64,000 nt of DNA from Promethearchaeota archaeon. Its GTDB lineage: Archaea > Asgardarchaeota > Lokiarchaeia > Sigyniarchaeales > SOKP01. The first letter of the stretch is position 1. Every line of letters starts with the position of its first letter. Below are positions 6,272-29,271 of this stretch, in pieces. Both the position numbers and the translations under genes were made by a program. The notes beneath the pieces are model-generated. The model had not been told where the DNA came from and made no database searches. It worked only from the letters and a program-made list of their open reading frames with translations. The stretch lies in the NCBI GenBank assembly GCA_016839585.1, contig JAEOTZ010000003.1:27866-91865 (forward strand), read 5' to 3'.

Positions 6272-7441
6272 ATGGTTAATGAAGCACGAATTAAAAAAAA
6301 TCTCAAAAATCTTGCTTTTCCTCGATTATCTGGAACGGAATTTGAACTTAAAGCTTTTAATAAGGTAATGGAAGAAGTAGAGAATTTGAATTTGGAATTT
6401 GAAATCCAGCCTTTTACTTTTAGTTCGTTTTATTCGAGGATATATCCAAAAATAGCATTTTTATCTGGGTCGTTAATTTTATTATTATTTTACTTGAACA
6501 TAATTATGATGATATCTTTTGTTTTGATACTTATCTTATTTTGTATAGTGATGGCCTCTCTAATATTGACGAGAAAACCCGAAAAAATTCAATTCATTAA
6601 AAAATTTAATTCACAAAACCTCTTAGTAAAGATTAACTCTAAATCAAATGAAAAGGATAATAATGACAGAATAGTAATGTTTATGAGTCATTTGGATTCC
6701 AAAGGACAAAGATTCACGATTAATACTCGGATAAGAATGATTAAACTTTGGATCTCCTCATCAACTTTTTTGGCTGTTGTTATAATCTATAAATTATTTA
6801 TCTCTATGGAATTTGAAATAATCTTTTATGTTATCGGGCTGTTTCCTTTAATAATAAATATGTATGCCACCATAATAATACTTCTTAACACCACAGATAA
6901 TAGTTCTGTTGGTGCTGTTGATAATGCTTCAGGTATAGTGTGTAATTTAGAACTTTTAAACTATTTTAGTATTCCTAAAAACAGATTAACAAATTATAAC
7001 ATGTGGTTTCTTTTTACTGGAGCTGAAGAATGCGGAACAATGGGTATTAGGCATTTTTATAATAATTTGGAAAACTTAGATTTTAATAAATCGATAATAT
7101 TTAATTTTGAATCTATAGCTAATCATGTATATCTATTTCCGGGAGAAAATGATGTGGATCACATCAAGGAGGTAGATCATTTGCTATTGAATAATAACAG
7201 AAATCTTCAGATCAGCCATTATATTACAAGTAGAGTTCTCGGCACTCATTCCGATGGGGGTTTTTTGGGAGACAAGGGTCTACAAGGGTGGGGGGTGGGG
7301 GAGGTTGAAGCATATGCTTATATGCATACTCCCAATGATACAATCGATAAAATTGATACTAAGGTTTTAAAGAATCTGTGTTTGGTTCTTATTGATACTT
7401 TAAAAGAGCATGATTCTAATTTTACTAAAAATAAAAAATAA
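6272..7441 (+). CDS. M28-family metallopeptidase with embedded TM helices
   Basis: SHLDSK, GAVDNASG, GAEECG, HSD and YMHT..DT motifs, plus two pairs of hydrophobic segments. Confidence 0.85.
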   Translation: MVNEARIKKNLKNLAFPRLSGTEFELKAFNKVMEEVENLNLEFEIQPFTFSSFYSRIYPKIAFLSGSLILLLFYLNIIMMISFVLILILFCIVMASLILTRKPEKIQFIKKFNSQNLLVKINSKSNEKDNNDRIVMFMSHLDSKGQRFTINTRIRMIKLWISSSTFLAVVIIYKLFISMEFEIIFYVIGLFPLIINMYATIIILLNTTDNSSVGAVDNASGIVCNLELLNYFSIPKNRLTNYNMWFLFTGAEECGTMGIRHFYNNLENLDFNKSIIFNFESIANHVYLFPGENDVDHIKEVDHLLLNNNRNLQISHYITSRVLGTHSDGGFLGDKGLQGWGVGEVEAYAYMHTPNDTIDKIDTKVLKNLCLVLIDTLKEHDSNFTKNKK

Positions 7442-7465: not shown

Positions 7466-7915
7466 TTAAACTTCGCCAAAATAAGAATATAGAATATATA
7501 TTAGAAAAGCTATTATCGAGATAAAAAATATCCATAGGCTAAATACAGAGAAGAATTCAAATAATAGATTATTGGTTAAGTTTGGTTCTCCGAACATCAA
7601 GACAATTATAATGGACGCTATTGCAGAGATTAAGAATTGAGTTATCAGAGATTTTATAAGCTTAGGATATTCATCTAATTTTTTATTTTTAATTATATCG
7701 CTTAAAGAAACATAAAGTTGTAATGTCGGAAAAAACATTAAGGCAAACGGAACAAGAGACAAAAGATTTGAGAAGTATACAATCCATATGAATTCCGCAT
7801 TTAAATTAATAATGCTGAATATTAAAGCAGAAATTCCGTAAATGATCGCAATCATCCAGACTGCCAACAAAATATAAGATATTTGATTTAAGGATATCAT
7901 ATTATTTTTATTCAT
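7466..7915 (-). CDS. Hypothetical 4-TM membrane protein
   Basis: 149-aa hydrophobic ORF that fills the intergenic space. Confidence 0.6.
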   Translation of the reverse strand: MNKNNMISLNQISYILLAVWMIAIIYGISALIFSIINLNAEFIWIVYFSNLLSLVPFALMFFPTLQLYVSLSDIIKNKKLDEYPKLIKSLITQFLISAIASIIIVLMFGEPNLTNNLLFEFFSVFSLWIFFISIIAFLIYILYSYFGEV

Positions 7916-8014: not shown

Positions 8015-8806
8015 ATGAAAATGAATAAAAAATTAGATAATATTAAGGGAATATTATCCGATATTGATGGAACTCTCTACTTTAAAGGGGCTCCAATTTC
8101 AGGAGCCATAGCTGCCATTAATAATTTACGCGATCTAGGTATAAAATTGCTATTTTTCACAAATACAGATAGCAAATCTCCTAAAACAGTTTTAAAAATA
8201 TTACAAGATTATGGATTTACCATATATGAAGAAGAGATTTATACGCCAATTATTGCTCTAAAAGAATTTTTATCTAATTATCCAAATAAAAAATCTTATT
8301 TTGTCACAACTCGAGAAGTTGAGCAGGAATTCCAAAACTTTCCTCAAGTTGAAGGTGTTAAAGTTCCTGATTTCGTAATTTTAGGAGATTTTCATGATAA
8401 TTGGGATGTTCACAGAATTAATGAAGCATTTAAATATGTATTTAAGGGTGCTAGACTTCTTGGAACACAAGGTAATAAATATTATCTCGATCGCAATGGT
8501 GAACCAATTATCGATACTGGTTCATTTGTACAAATGATTGCAAGTGCTGCAAATATTACTCCTAAAATATTTGGAAAACCTTCAAAGGAATATTTTTTAC
8601 AAGCTTTAGAAAAAATCAATCTTTCTGCAAATGAGGTTTTTGTCATTGGTGATGATATTGAATCTGACATCCAAGGAGCAATTAATGCCGGTATTAAAGG
8701 TATATTAGTAAAAACTGGAAAGGGACAATTCTATGACACAAATAAAACACAAATTAAGCCATTTATGATTATTGAATCATTTAATTCTATATTAGAACTC
8801 CTTTAA
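8015..8806 (+). CDS. HAD-superfamily subfamily IIA hydrolase (LHPP/HDHD2/NagD-like)
   Basis: DIDGTLY, FTN, FGKPS, IGDDIESDI and LVKTGK motifs. Confidence 0.9.
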   Translation: MKMNKKLDNIKGILSDIDGTLYFKGAPISGAIAAINNLRDLGIKLLFFTNTDSKSPKTVLKILQDYGFTIYEEEIYTPIIALKEFLSNYPNKKSYFVTTREVEQEFQNFPQVEGVKVPDFVILGDFHDNWDVHRINEAFKYVFKGARLLGTQGNKYYLDRNGEPIIDTGSFVQMIASAANITPKIFGKPSKEYFLQALEKINLSANEVFVIGDDIESDIQGAINAGIKGILVKTGKGQFYDTNKTQIKPFMIIESFNSILELL

Positions 8807-8990
8807 AATTAATTTATTTAAAAAAATTCAGCCTAATCTAGTAGAAACTATTTTTTAAGTGAAATTTTTACACTTTTCTTCAAATTCGAAATCATAATTG
8901 ATTCCTTGTTATAATCAAAACATTTATATATTGTTTAATGCGTATGTCTCATAAATAATATAATTTAAAACAAAATGGGAAGTATTATCC

Positions 8991-10001
8991 ATGGCTTTAT
9001 CTGAAAAAGAATTTTATATAAGGGATCTAGTTATAGATGATGAATATGGTACAATTGATTCGAATGCAACAATTCAAGATGCCGCTAAAAAAATGAAGGA
9101 ATTGGGGGTACCAGACTTAGTAGTAATAGAAGGAGAAAAGCGAAAGGTAATTGGAGTTATAGCTGATTTTGATATCGTACAAAATATTGTAGCAGAAGGA
9201 TCAGACTCGAAAACTGAGAGAGTAGTGTCAACAATGTATACAATCACTCCAGTTTCATTAGATACTCCTGTCGAAAAAGCCTTTAAAAGAATGCGTGACT
9301 TGCATGTCAATGTTGTGCCAGTAGTTGAAAAAGAAAGGCTTATTGGCGTAGCTACTATTCAAGATTGTTGGAGTTATATTCCTGATAAAATTGTGGATGA
9401 AATAGGCTTAATTCCTGTAAGAAATACAAAAGTAGCCGAATTTTGGTTTGCTAGTGCATGTGCGATAATAGCATTTGTTTTAGGTATTTTATTGCCAACT
9501 CTTGGAGTTTTTAGTTATTTTACAGGCAATCAATCAGATCTTCAAAGTTTTTTAAACATGGGTCCTATTGGAGGAAAGGTTACGTTCCATGTTTTTGAAG
9601 CACGTGGTGTGAATTTTTTTGTACAGTTAACAGATTTAATTTCGACTAATGGTGAAATATGGTTAGTAGTTGTGATTATTGGTATTTTAATGCTAGTATT
9701 TGGAATAATTGGCTTAATATCAATAGTATATGCTAGTTTTTCTAATGTAAAAAATTATCAAACTGGACGTTTGATCCAATATCTAATTCCTGGTTTAATG
9801 CTTGTTTTCATGGTTCTTGAATGGATCTTTTATGCTATTGGGTTTGCAACCGCTGAACCCTCTGTCAAAATAAAAATTGATGGGGTTGGTTTAACACTTT
9901 CAATTATTTCAATGCTTTTAATTCTGGGAGCTATTTTTCGTGATTATATTTTCCGTGAAAAGGAATCGCCACAATCTAAAACAAGGGAGGTGAAGGAATA
10001 A
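8991..10001 (+). CDS. CBS-pair domain fused to a 4-TM membrane domain
   Basis: Two CBS repeats (TIQDAAKKM...VIGVIADFDI; PVEKAFKRM...LIGVATIQD) followed by four hydrophobic helices. Confidence 0.85.
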   Translation: MALSEKEFYIRDLVIDDEYGTIDSNATIQDAAKKMKELGVPDLVVIEGEKRKVIGVIADFDIVQNIVAEGSDSKTERVVSTMYTITPVSLDTPVEKAFKRMRDLHVNVVPVVEKERLIGVATIQDCWSYIPDKIVDEIGLIPVRNTKVAEFWFASACAIIAFVLGILLPTLGVFSYFTGNQSDLQSFLNMGPIGGKVTFHVFEARGVNFFVQLTDLISTNGEIWLVVVIIGILMLVFGIIGLISIVYASFSNVKNYQTGRLIQYLIPGLMLVFMVLEWIFYAIGFATAEPSVKIKIDGVGLTLSIISMLLILGAIFRDYIFREKESPQSKTREVKE

Positions 10002-10002
10002 G

Positions 10003-11493
10003 ATGCCTCGTGGTGGAGGATTTAGGGGTGGTGGATTTCGAGGTGGAGGATTTCGAGGTGGAGGATTTCGAGGTGGACCAGCAGGATTTCGAATGGGAAG
10101 TGTTCGAACAAGTGGAAGACCATTCGGGCGAACTGGTGCAACAAGAATAGATTCTCGATCTCCAAGAGGTCCTTATTCACATACAATGTATAGACCACGT
10201 CGACATTATTATCGACCTTGGTGGTGGTATCATCGACCTTGGTATTATAGGTGGTGGTACTCACCATGGTGGGCTGGTCGCTATTATCGACCTTGGTATT
10301 ATTCTCCTATGTATATTGGTGGAGGTATAATCTTTTTAATTGTGATGGCATTGATTTTATTGCCTGCTTTTGGTGTTGCTATTTTATTCCCTTTTAGTGA
10401 CGCTGATGTCGATGGATCTGTGAATTACCGTTCAACAGAAACCTTATATTTTAATGAATTTTGGTATGAATATGAAAATATTGAAGCAGGTAATGATATA
10501 ACTTATACTGTTGAATCATCAATTGATGATTGCATCAATTTCGCAATATGGGATCATTCATTTGAAAATTTTCCACTAAAAAACCTTCATGATACTGAAG
10601 TAGGATCAATTCCTCTCCCGAGTAATTACTATGAATATCGATGGATGTTCCTAAGACCAGACTCTATAATAAATTTTGATTTTAACGCAAGTGGTCAGAT
10701 TGATTTTTTTATTGCTAATGGCTATGATCTTTATTTATGGAATCAAGGAGGTTCACCGACTTTTGAACTCAGTATAGATGATACAAATGGGGATTCTGGT
10801 TTTTTAGTGATAGATACTGCTGCTGATTATTATGTGGTATGGTATAACCCTCCGGATGGTGATCCTTCCGTAGATGTTGATTTTACTGTGGATTTTACTA
10901 TTGCTAATGTAGTAGATTTCACAGCAGCAGATTATTATGTTAATAATACCGATTTTGTAACTGGTACATTCAATGTTAATCGTTCAGGCAACTGGTATTT
11001 CTTTATTTACTTTGATCCTATGAATTCAGAAGCAGAATCTACCACAATTAGGTTTGATGTGACTTATGATACTGGAATAACATCAATTGACAGATGGCTA
11101 GAAGTTAGCCCAATATTGATAATTGTCGCAGTTATAGTTGTCATATTAATAATAGCTGCTATTATTGCTAGAAAAGGTCAAAAAAAATTGAAAAGTAAAG
11201 CTCCTCCAAAACCTGCAGCGCCAACTGAACCTTCAACACCTACAGCACCTTCAACTCCAACAATTACTACTAAAAAAGCACCCCCCTCTATTCATAAGTG
11301 TGTTCGTTGTGGAGCAGCTCATTCACCAGACGCCCAATTCTGTCCAAATTGTGGGGGTAAAATACAAGGAAGGCAACTTGGCACTCCTTCAGTTACTACA
11401 CCGGCAATGTCAAAAACATGTTCCTATTGCGGAAGCAAACTTCTGGAGAAAGATAAATTCTGTAAGTGGTGCGGTACTAAAATTGAGCAATAA
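10003..11493 (+). CDS. 2-TM protein: RGG and RPWY low-complexity N-tail, extracellular beta-sandwich region, Pro/Thr linker, double zinc ribbon
   Basis: (RGGGF)x4, then YYRPWW/HRPWYY repeats, TM, an acidic beta-rich region, TM, and CxxC..CPNCG and CxxC..CKWCG. GGAGGTGA RBS lies inside the upstream gene. Confidence 0.85.
   Translation: MPRGGGFRGGGFRGGGFRGGGFRGGPAGFRMGSVRTSGRPFGRTGATRIDSRSPRGPYSHTMYRPRRHYYRPWWWYHRPWYYRWWYSPWWAGRYYRPWYYSPMYIGGGIIFLIVMALILLPAFGVAILFPFSDADVDGSVNYRSTETLYFNEFWYEYENIEAGNDITYTVESSIDDCINFAIWDHSFENFPLKNLHDTEVGSIPLPSNYYEYRWMFLRPDSIINFDFNASGQIDFFIANGYDLYLWNQGGSPTFELSIDDTNGDSGFLVIDTAADYYVVWYNPPDGDPSVDVDFTVDFTIANVVDFTAADYYVNNTDFVTGTFNVNRSGNWYFFIYFDPMNSEAESTTIRFDVTYDTGITSIDRWLEVSPILIIVAVIVVILIIAAIIARKGQKKLKSKAPPKPAAPTEPSTPTAPSTPTITTKKAPPSIHKCVRCGAAHSPDAQFCPNCGGKIQGRQLGTPSVTTPAMSKTCSYCGSKLLEKDKFCKWCGTKIEQ
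10009..10077 (+). repeat. 15-bp coding tandem repeat (RGGGF) x4.6
   Basis: CGAGGTGGAGGATTT-type units repeated in frame. Confidence 0.9.
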
Positions 11494-11564
11494 TTAAATA
11501 GAATTAGTAAAATTATAATTAAATTAAATCTTTTTTCTTTTTTATTACTTTTTAATAATTTAAT

Positions 11565-11756
11565 TCATAATTTTGGTTTTTCTTCTCCATTATTTTTAAA
11601 AGGATCGTAGACTCCTTTTATTTCATTGAGATCTACTGTCATAATCGTATGACGTAAGTGTTTCTTTTCAAACTTTTTTATCTCAAGCTGGTTGATAGGA
11701 CTATCTGGGTGGATAACGATATATTCTCTACATTTAATGCACGCACGAGCTCTCAT
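11565..11756 (-). CDS. Small CxxC...HxxH putative zinc-finger protein
   Basis: RACIKCREY...KKHLRHT. An adjacent paralog conserves the same residues. Confidence 0.75.
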   Translation of the reverse strand: MRARACIKCREYIVIHPDSPINQLEIKKFEKKHLRHTIMTVDLNEIKGVYDPFKNNGEEKPKL

Positions 11757-27420: not shown

Positions 27421-29271
27421 ATGTGTGGAATATTTGGTGTAATAACAAATCAAAAAGATATATCGATTGGAAAAATTGCTTTTGAAGGTATTAAACGTTT
27501 AGAATATCGAGGTTATGATTCTTGTGGAATAGTTACTCAATTTAATTCCAAATTATATGTTAAGAAAGAATCTGGTAGAATTGATGAGATTCAGAAAAAA
27601 ATAAATTTAACAGATTTTCCAAATGGTTCTAAACTTGCACTTGCTCATACAAGATGGGCAACTCATGGCGCACCTACGAAAAATAATAGTCATCCGCATT
27701 TAGATTGTTCGGGTGAAATAGCTATTGTTCATAATGGAATAATAGATAATTTTATAGAATTGAGAAAAGAATTAACTGACAAAGGCCATATCTTTAAATC
27801 TGACACAGATACCGAGATAATTCCACATTTAATTGAAGATTTTATAAAAGATGGACTAAATCTTAAAGATGCTGTTATTCGCGCTTTAAAACGATGCCGC
27901 GGAGCTTATGCAATAGCTATTTGTTATGCTAAAAGTCCGGATTTAATATTTGTTGCTCGAAAAGGATCTCCTTTAGTTATTGGAATTGATCAAGATCGAG
28001 CAACTTATTGTGCTTCAGATATTCCAGCTTTTCTACCCTTAACAAGGTATTGTTACATTATGGATGATGATGAATTGGCTAAATTAGAAGCTGGAAAGGT
28101 TTCATTCTTTAATATTAATGATGATACAAGAATTGAAAAGGAATTGCAAGAGATTGAATGGAGTATTGATGCTGCTGAAAAAGGAGGGTATGAACATTTT
28201 ATGTTAAAAGAGATTTATGAAGAACCCATGGCACTAAGGCGCACTATGAAGATTCATAAAGATCAAATAATAAATTTCGCTAATGAGTTATGGTCAGCAA
28301 GTAATATTTATATCACAGCAGCCGGTACATCATTTTATGCTTCATTAGCTGGGAAATACATTATTACTAAATTTTTGGGAAAATATATTCACGCAGTTGA
28401 ATGTTCTGAATTTAAGAACGAATTAGCAGAATGTCTAAGAGAAAATTCCGTAGTTATTGCACTCTCTCAATCTGGAGAAACTATAGATACAATTGATGCA
28501 ATTCGGTGGGCAAAAAGAAAGAAAGGTGTAAAAGTATTATCAATAACGAATGTAGTAGGATCAACTATTACTAGATACTCAGATCACGTGATTGTTACTC
28601 GTGCCGGACCTGAAATCGGGGTTGCTGCTACAAAAACTTATTGTACTCAAGTATTAACTTTAGCATTGATTGCATTAGAAATAGCCAAATTACGAAAAAT
28701 AGAATCATTTGAGGAGATAAAAAAATATTATGAAGCATTAAACTCAACTCCATCAATAATAGAAGAATTTCTGGAAACTAAAGTAGATTCTGTAAAAAAA
28801 ATTATTAGATGTTTAGACAAAGAACACAACTTCTTTTTTTTGGCACGAGGTATATCTATTGCTACTGCTAAAGAAGGGGGACTAAAATTAAAAGAAATAG
28901 CATGTCGCTTCATAGAAGGCTATTCGGCGGCTCATGCAAAACATGGGCCCATATCTCTCGTTAGAGATGGTTTTCCAATAATATTTATTGCACCACCCGA
29001 TGAAACTTATGAAAGATTAATAGGTAATGTTATGGAATTTAAGGCAAGGGGAGGTAAAATCATTTCATTAGTTGTAGAAAGTGATGAAAAAATAACAGAA
29101 TTGAGTGATATTACAATTCGAATTCCACAACCAGGAGATAGATACCATAATCTCTTTAGCCCAATAACTTTTATCCCTGCTTTACAGTTATTGGCTTATT
29201 ATACCGCTTTATCTCACGGACTAGATCCTGATAAACCATTGAACTTAAGTAAAACAGTAACTGTACATTAA
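27421..29271 (+). CDS. glmS: Glutamine--fructose-6-phosphate transaminase (isomerizing)
   Basis: MCGIFG, LEYRGYDS, HTRWATHG, SQSGET, AATKT and NLSKTVTV motifs. Confidence 0.97.
   Translation: MCGIFGVITNQKDISIGKIAFEGIKRLEYRGYDSCGIVTQFNSKLYVKKESGRIDEIQKKINLTDFPNGSKLALAHTRWATHGAPTKNNSHPHLDCSGEIAIVHNGIIDNFIELRKELTDKGHIFKSDTDTEIIPHLIEDFIKDGLNLKDAVIRALKRCRGAYAIAICYAKSPDLIFVARKGSPLVIGIDQDRATYCASDIPAFLPLTRYCYIMDDDELAKLEAGKVSFFNINDDTRIEKELQEIEWSIDAAEKGGYEHFMLKEIYEEPMALRRTMKIHKDQIINFANELWSASNIYITAAGTSFYASLAGKYIITKFLGKYIHAVECSEFKNELAECLRENSVVIALSQSGETIDTIDAIRWAKRKKGVKVLSITNVVGSTITRYSDHVIVTRAGPEIGVAATKTYCTQVLTLALIALEIAKLRKIESFEEIKKYYEALNSTPSIIEEFLETKVDSVKKIIRCLDKEHNFFFLARGISIATAKEGGLKLKEIACRFIEGYSAAHAKHGPISLVRDGFPIIFIAPPDETYERLIGNVMEFKARGGKIISLVVESDEKITELSDITIRIPQPGDRYHNLFSPITFIPALQLLAYYTALSHGLDPDKPLNLSKTVTVH

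Follow-up and report, generated by a model that had tools for sequence, protein, structure and literature searches.

Coupled genes for a CBS-domain membrane protein and an archaeal relative of the eukaryotic APD1-4 proteins in an Asgard archaeon

The APD1-4 proteins form an almost unstudied eukaryotic family, which includes RING E3 ligases of Arabidopsis and RING-less relatives in protists, and in which an outer or luminal domain is held between two helices as a membrane hairpin. In the p24/TMED proteins a GOLD beta-sandwich is exposed on the non-cytoplasmic side of the membrane, and in MgtE, CNNM/CorC and ClC proteins a cytoplasmic CBS pair is joined to a membrane domain. FRGGG repeats at a protein terminus are known from RGG/GAR-box proteins (FET family, nucleolin, Gar1 and fibrillarin). 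Here we describe two adjacent genes with likeness to each of these systems, found in a Promethearchaeota archaeon (assembly GCA_016839585.1, contig JAEOTZ010000003.1). They lie in a stretch of 64,000 nucleotides (positions 27,866 to 91,865 of the contig), called the window below, and all coordinates refer to it. Two co-oriented open reading frames (ORFs) were confirmed on the forward strand. Gene 1 (8991..10001, 336 aa) encodes a protein with a CBS pair and four membrane helices, and gene 2 (10003..11493, 496 aa) a two-pass membrane protein. An earlier note, made from the letters of the window, had compared gene 2 with FET proteins, nucleolin and Gar1 and proposed membrane-tethered RNA binding or clustering. 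By profile and structure comparison, gene 2 is instead an archaeal member, by homology, of the eukaryotic APD1-4 luminal-domain family (PF16040/PF16041).

Relationship of gene 2 to the APD1-4 family

The gene 2 protein was modelled by AlphaFold2 (AF2) with two helices (residues 102-128 and 361-396) and, between them, a beta-rich domain (139-356) with a predicted local distance difference test (pLDDT) score above 90. Transmembrane (TM) helix 1 (10306..10386; AF2 helix and hydropathy scan) and TM helix 2, which continues into a Lys-rich cytoplasmic extension (11083..11190; AF2 helix), flank the acidic outer domain (10387..11082), whose limits follow from pLDDT, the ranges of structural matches (VIA), charge and N-glycosylation sequons. 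The domain consists of an outer beta-sandwich (about residues 132-190 and 305-356) with a jelly roll inserted into it (about residues 195-300, 10585..10902; VIA and hhalign). The inserted roll is GOLD-like. It matches p24beta1 (5azw_B) with Z 13.2 and a root-mean-square deviation (rmsd) of 1.8 over 89/93 residues, TMED1 with Z 12.2, and 5gu5, 7rrm and 5azx with Z 11.4-12.5; together the GOLD matches (p24beta1, p24gamma2, TMED1 and p24delta1; Z 11.4-13.2, rmsd 1.8-2.3) exceed all others. However, gene 2 differs from p24/TMED proteins in having two helices rather than one, and neither a coiled coil nor a COPI/COPII tail motif. Its roll sits within a second sandwich, only sandwich strands and no helix are modelled between it and TM helix 2, and Pfam EMP24_GP25L was not matched at E up to 1.

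The relation to APD1-4 was reached by several profile and shape searches. Pfam APD1-4_N gave sub-threshold matches in 11 of 26 members of the gene 2 family (best E 5.3e-6), and a shape search of the ESM Atlas matched a plant APD cluster over residues 98-472. In an exhaustive HMMER search of 1.84 billion representatives, for which the profile was restricted to the two helices and the middle domain, 180 proteins were recovered in three tiers: the core family, a second tier of archaeal-looking proteins with the same plan and other N-terminal tails, and a third (library-wide E 1.8e-7 to 1.3e-4) of proteins above the Pfam thresholds for APD1-4_N and APD1-4_M. The third tier includes an amoebozoan transcript, a Brassica protein and a gene that neighbours SF3b10 within a 451-kb contig. 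Searching a word index with the eukaryotic alignment gave only 4 proteins. When the Asgard and eukaryotic APD-like alignments were compared by hhalign, they aligned with a probability of 99.1% (E 3.7e-19) over 165 columns, corresponding to gene 2 residues 198-371, and the motif DYYVVWYN was paired with the eukaryotic DDYYFVWEN. By these alignments the GOLD-like core is the part of gene 2 most clearly homologous to APD1-4_N/M. Eukaryotic APD-like genes can be clustered, too: a 321-kb contig carries at least three of them in tandem.

The likeness extends beyond the outer domain. Most eukaryotic APD-like relatives have two hydrophobic segments at places similar to those of gene 2, so that the helix-domain-helix hairpin is common to both, and the cytoplasmic C-terminal tail is zinc-binding in plant APD proteins as in gene 2. 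Several eukaryotic relatives, among them protist proteins, start with MPxGGG, carry Gly/His repeats and show a stretch of aromatic residues ahead of the first helix; one of them contains YYSP. The C-terminal tails of these relatives have PPxY-like motifs rather than zinc fingers, and many are without RING. In contrast to plant APD1-4, gene 2 ends in a double zinc ribbon and has no C3HC4 RING; its N-terminal tail is Gly/Arg and not Gly/His as in the eukaryotic relatives, the conserved luminal Cys pair of APD1-4 is missing, and among eukaryotes no counterpart was found of the CBS membrane protein to which gene 2 is coupled.

In an exploratory FastTree phylogeny the eukaryotic sequences group together (support 0.82), and two zinc-ribbon-bearing prokaryote-type proteins adjoin them (0.93), apart from the Asgard core; this placement is only a lead. 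The bridge protein P0353 (L041:6001-7344), which adjoins the eukaryotic sequences in the tree, combines a Gly-rich aromatic tail, an APD1-4_N match above the Pfam threshold and a C-terminal zinc ribbon, in a prokaryotic context with AsnC, PhoU, PHO4 and MFS genes as neighbours. There is no CBS neighbour at its locus; the 347-aa gene 5' of P0353, considered as a candidate gene 1, is unrelated to gene 1. The second tier includes four tandem paralogues without a CBS gene on the P0280 contig. Since these distant relatives are without a CBS gene, the CBS partnership is specific to the core family. Two further variants have other domain combinations. In P0242 (875 aa) a TPR-like repeat region of about 570 aa, with a small zinc ribbon, stands in place of the Gly/Arg N-terminal tail, and in P0250 (652 aa) the outer APD-like domain is joined to a beta-propeller-like repeat region.

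Automatic Pfam PF16040 matches are already present on some homologues of gene 2, and the APD link was therefore discoverable. In the literature, however, no description was found of Asgard relatives of APD proteins or of a pairing of CBS and APD-like genes, as the earlier note had supposed for the pair; nothing relevant was found that would tie Asgard archaea to APD, GOLD, DUF4792 or membrane E3 ligases, and APD, GOLD and p24 are unmentioned in the main text of two papers on Asgard eukaryotic signature proteins. Should the homology and the common tail be due to descent, the few Asgard proteins with clear eukaryotic counterparts would be joined by a membrane protein family of receptor or sorting type, and the APD1-4 family would gain a prokaryotic context and a defined partner.

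Coupling of the two genes and their distribution

The stop codon of gene 1 (TAA, 9999-10001) and the start codon of gene 2 (ATG, 10003) are separated by 1 nt, and a Shine-Dalgarno-like sequence for gene 2, GGAGGTGA (9986..9993), lies within the end of gene 1, just as the earlier note had described. The same arrangement recurs elsewhere. A gap of 0-9 nt from stop to start was found in 113/113 loci, with GAGGT at most 20 nt before the start of gene 2 in 97 of them. Gene 1 is directly 5' of gene 2 in all 30 close loci and in 8/8 distant loci (identity about 40%), where no other neighbour from the window is kept. Of 80 species-level loci, all 80 carry gene 2 and 78 carry gene 1, against 55 with an upstream HAD hydrolase and 32 with purL. 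The synteny of the pair across Asgard genomes, which the earlier note had proposed to test, is thus strict, with the two genes side by side and in one orientation in all loci examined.

Over 301 Asgard genomes both genes follow the same patchy pattern, which comprises two Loki-type families and one distant Heimdall-labelled genus. Gene 2 was counted in 53/68, 6/7 and 18/21 genomes of the three families concerned (f1, f2 and f24), and the membrane domain of gene 1 in 49/68, 7/7 and 19/21, respectively. In the other 27 families searched the pair was not found together, save in one genome that looks misplaced. The carriers are the family of the window, its sister family (named records: Candidatus Harpocratesius) and the distant genus, for which two records give the label Heimdallarchaeota and one gives Thorarchaeota. 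In one large set of assembled genomes the submitters' labels plainly disagree, so that the name of this genus is left open. Within the window's own family, genera without one gene of the pair are also without the other. Judged from these gene maps, the two genes are coupled in translation, adjacent in every case and gained or lost as a pair, and they almost certainly work as one unit. The coupling to a CBS sensor offers a testable handle on function, and experiments may be feasible in Promethearchaeum, the genus of the cultured Asgard strain, since relatives occur in metagenome-assembled genomes (MAGs) labelled Promethearchaeum sp.

Proteins 52-67% identical to the Loki-type protein of the window are carried by MAGs labelled Hodarchaeota, Thorarchaeota, Odinarchaeota and Hermodarchaeota. 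Such labels look unreliable, because the genome-based tallies place the pair in three families only.

The two subunits and their possible function

Gene 1 matches Pfam CBS in two stretches (E 6.4e-15), and its AF2 model (mean pLDDT 80.9) has a CBS pair at residues 8-129 followed by four helices (146-170, 223-250, 256-286 and 298-315), in agreement with the architecture given by the earlier note. The CBS pair or Bateman module (9018..9377) is defined by Pfam, VIA and conservation, and the four-helix membrane domain (9426..9935) by AF2 secondary structure; the first of its outer loops (residues 171-222) contains beta-strands and the second (287-297) is short, and a likeness of the loops to those of claudin-type tetraspans is conjectural. 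The CBS pair resembles solved ligand-binding CBS pairs with Z 15-16.5 (VIA), reaching 16.5 against 1xkf over 119 residues and 15.6 against the AMP-bound 2rif. CBS domains bind ribose through a G-h-h-T/S-x-x-D motif, and the strand G119-V-A-T122-I-Q-D125 of CBS2 matches it; G55, D61, G119 and D125 are invariant in 28 gene 1 sequences. The canonical adenosyl-ligand motif is thus kept in CBS2, with binding itself predicted, and energy-charge sensing by the pair is plausible. Homologues of gene 1 number in the hundreds (59-95% identity), and every named one is from Asgard archaea. The mean column identity of their alignment is 77%, with unusual conservation of the linker and the four-helix domain.

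Relatives of this membrane domain were sought in three ways. A feature search of the ESM Atlas peaked at a score of 0.83, short of the useful range; with a profile, the best PDB sequence (cytochrome oxidase II) had an E of 0.13, at chance level; and Pfam, run on 32 members, gave no consistent family. NCBIfam has no family for the gene 1 protein or the gene 2 protein. In fold searches with the whole gene 1 model, all top matches were taken by CBS pairs and not by the membrane domain. This bears on a further reading, in which gene 1 would act as an ion channel or transporter gated by CBS, like MgtE, CNNM or ClC, and gene 2 as its accessory subunit. Such transporters usually have a CBS pair and then a membrane domain, the top Foldseek match is MgtE (E 1.6e-9), the CBS pairs of MtCorB and MgtE match that of gene 1 at Z 12-14, and gene 1 has an invariant Glu150 at the start of TM1 and Glu/Gln in TM3. 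However, the MgtE match stems from the CBS pair, with an rmsd of 18.5 for the full alignment, there are only four helices, and Pfam gave nothing for the membrane domains of MgtE, DUF21 or ClC, to which that of gene 1 appears, as far as Pfam can tell, unrelated. Moreover, compared with MgtE, CNNM and ClC, gene 1 has its CBS pair before the membrane domain, its four helices carry beta-strand loops, and its conservation is strongest in the linker and loops. A channel or transporter is accordingly the reading that we find very unlikely.

In gene 2, as in gene 1, the homologues number in the hundreds (51-91% identity) and every named one is from Asgard archaea; the genome of the window has one copy of gene 2. 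The N-terminal tail (10003..10305, delimited by conservation) contains MPRGGG, FRGGG repeats, GRPFGRTG and an Arg/Trp/Tyr/Pro tract that ends in RPWYYSP at TM helix 1; within the aromatic tract the exact 12-nt word ATCGACCTTGGT occurs three times (10211, 10232 and 10286). Charge counts are +19 for this tail and -35 for the outer domain, and the C-terminal tail is Lys-rich (16 K). The density of N-glycosylation sequons is 1.48 per 100 aa in the outer domain and 0.1 in the rest of the protein. The positive-inside rule would place both tails in the cytoplasm. The C-terminal tail contains a double zinc ribbon (11296..11478; Pfam and conservation) with four CxxC pairs (C433/436, C447/450, C473/476 and C487/490), matched by Pfam DZR over 433-491 (E 1.4e-11) and by Zn_Ribbon_1 (E 1.1e-10), and all eight Cys are invariant in 26 sequences. 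The two zinc ribbons and the acidic outer domain between helices that the earlier note had predicted are therefore present; by profile match and Cys pattern, the ribbons are of the generic DZR type and not RanBP2-type fingers.

The composition of the N-terminal tail is likewise as the earlier note had it: residues 1-105 include 20 R, 21 G, 9 W, 13 Y and no K, with five (F)RGGG repeats. Its description as low-complexity sequence falls short, since 26 homologues show little or no variation in MPRGGG, in GRPFGRTG and in the tracts around RPWY and RPWYYSP, and the motifs are still present in relatives from the distant genus that are about 42% identical overall. This conservation rules out a chance low-complexity ORF, and fits the expectation of a conserved tail, with its cytoplasmic location indicated by charge.

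The tail and the zinc ribbons had been taken to tether RNA or form condensates at the membrane, ruled by energy charge and an external cue. This would agree with the five repeats and with 20 Arg and 22 Trp/Tyr in 105 residues, with a tail that is conserved across the family and modelled as disordered (residues 1-100, pLDDT 30-45), and with the fact that zinc ribbons can bind nucleic acid. The eukaryotic homologues, however, keep the MPxGGG Gly-rich tail and the aromatic tract with His in place of Arg, so arginine-based RNA binding is not the conserved property. In addition, what is conserved in the tail is a set of fixed linear motifs, which typical RGG regions do not show, and in P0242 the tail is exchanged for the TPR-like repeats, a protein-binding scaffold. 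No RRM, KH or RanBP2-type finger was found by Pfam in gene 2 or its family members, and no conserved RNA-related neighbour in the distant and the 80 species-level loci. Compared with RGG/GAR-box proteins, gene 2 is a membrane protein without an RNA-binding fold or a RanBP2 finger, and has fixed tail motifs in which homologues show His for Arg. Analogy alone is insufficient to call the RGG-like tail of an archaeal membrane protein an RNA-binding module. The homology to APD1-4 and the DZR type of the ribbons replace the comparison with FET proteins, nucleolin and Gar1, and with Gly/His tails in eukaryotes and no linked RNA-related gene, RNA binding or condensation at the membrane is improbable.

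The homology raises another possibility: gene 2 might serve the ubiquitin-like system of Asgard archaea, either as an E3 ligase bound to the membrane or as an adaptor, and be regulated by the CBS subunit. Plant APD1-4 are RING E3 ligases, and E2 and ubiquitin-like genes were present in all five carrier genomes checked. Furthermore, members from the Heimdall-labelled genus have about 50 extra residues after the zinc ribbons with eight conserved Cys/His ligands in a Not4-like spacing (C-x2-C-x4-C-x2-C-x12-C-x2-C), and zf-RING_4 was matched in 7/7 of them. These matches are nonetheless below the Pfam threshold (best E 1.3e-5), and among solved structures an archaeal ribosomal zinc protein ranked first and the Not4 RING next; on its ligand spacing and profile matches the finger is RING-like, not a proven RING. 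It is limited to one genus, the protein of the window has no RING (zf-C3HC4_3, E 0.22), many eukaryotic relatives with PPxY-like tails have none either, and in the five genomes the pair shows no linkage to the genes for E2 and ubiquitin. We consider a ligase or adaptor unlikely.

The reading that we prefer is that the two proteins are subunits of one membrane module, probably, though by no means surely, a nucleotide-gated receptor or sorting-type complex, with a mechanism that we infer as follows. Subunit 1 is a Bateman module joined to an orphan four-helix membrane domain, and subunit 2 a hairpin membrane protein with, judged by charge, both tails inside and a GOLD-like outer core. The outer domain may bind a surface or external ligand, either protein or glycan, by analogy with GOLD domains, which bind cargo. 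The cytoplasmic tails, i.e. a membrane-lying Arg/Trp/Tyr tract, the Gly/Arg repeats and the zinc ribbons, may recruit a cytoplasmic partner. The CBS subunit may set the activity of the complex through an adenine-nucleotide or SAM-type (S-adenosylmethionine) ligand, in analogy with the CBS pairs of MgtE, CNNM and ClC proteins. Signalling of a receptor or sorting type would be the most likely output, and it might feed into the ubiquitin-like system of archaea.

Several points weigh against the receptor or sorting-type module. The contact between the two proteins is putative, and so are the ligand, the partner and the output. CBS1 of gene 1 has Ala where the ribose-binding motif has T/S. The membrane domain of gene 1 appears, from the searches above, to be an orphan, with no detectable relative hinting at its role. 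The gene 2 protein of the window alone has no Pfam APD match at E up to 1, so that the link needs profiles. Finally, the tandem or lone archaeal relatives without a CBS gene imply that an APD-like protein can work without subunit 1. A complex prediction for gene 1 with residues 100-400 of gene 2 scored 0.02 and was counted neither for nor against.

A wider scenario would relate this module to the eukaryotic family, with the pair marking a eukaryotic signature family that had gone unrecognised. The APD-type hairpin with its Gly-rich, aromatic MPxGGG tail would have originated among Asgard archaea, where a nucleotide-gated surface receptor used it as its output arm; eukaryotes would have inherited it, dropped the CBS partner and swapped the zinc ribbons for RING fingers or PPxY tails that link it to ubiquitylation, and the archaeal complex would already couple an external ligand to ubiquitin-like marking or membrane sorting. 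Taken as a whole, this scenario is rather unlikely.

Control signals and neighbouring genes

An AT-rich spacer of 184 nt separates the preceding HAD gene from gene 1, and a candidate archaeal TATA box, TTTATATA (8923..8930, forward strand), was read from the sequence about 60 nt 5' of the gene 1 start. On the 3' side of gene 2 there is a T-rich tract (11531..11553, forward strand). Archaea use oligo-T terminators, and the tract is therefore likely to be the terminator of the two-gene unit.

The HAD-IIA-type hydrolase gene 5' of the pair (8015-8806, forward strand) has the Pfam domains Hydrolase_6 and Hydrolase_like. Its position near the pair probably reflects shared synteny rather than membership in the module; HAD, M28 and purL neighbours were rejected as module members, being absent from the distant loci. 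Further upstream there are an M28 peptidase with an N-terminal multi-helix membrane region (6272-7441, forward strand) and a hydrophobic 149-aa protein of no family (7466-7915, reverse strand). Just past the T-rich tract starts a convergent 63-aa ORF (11565-11756, reverse strand) of no Pfam family, with a CxxC near its start.

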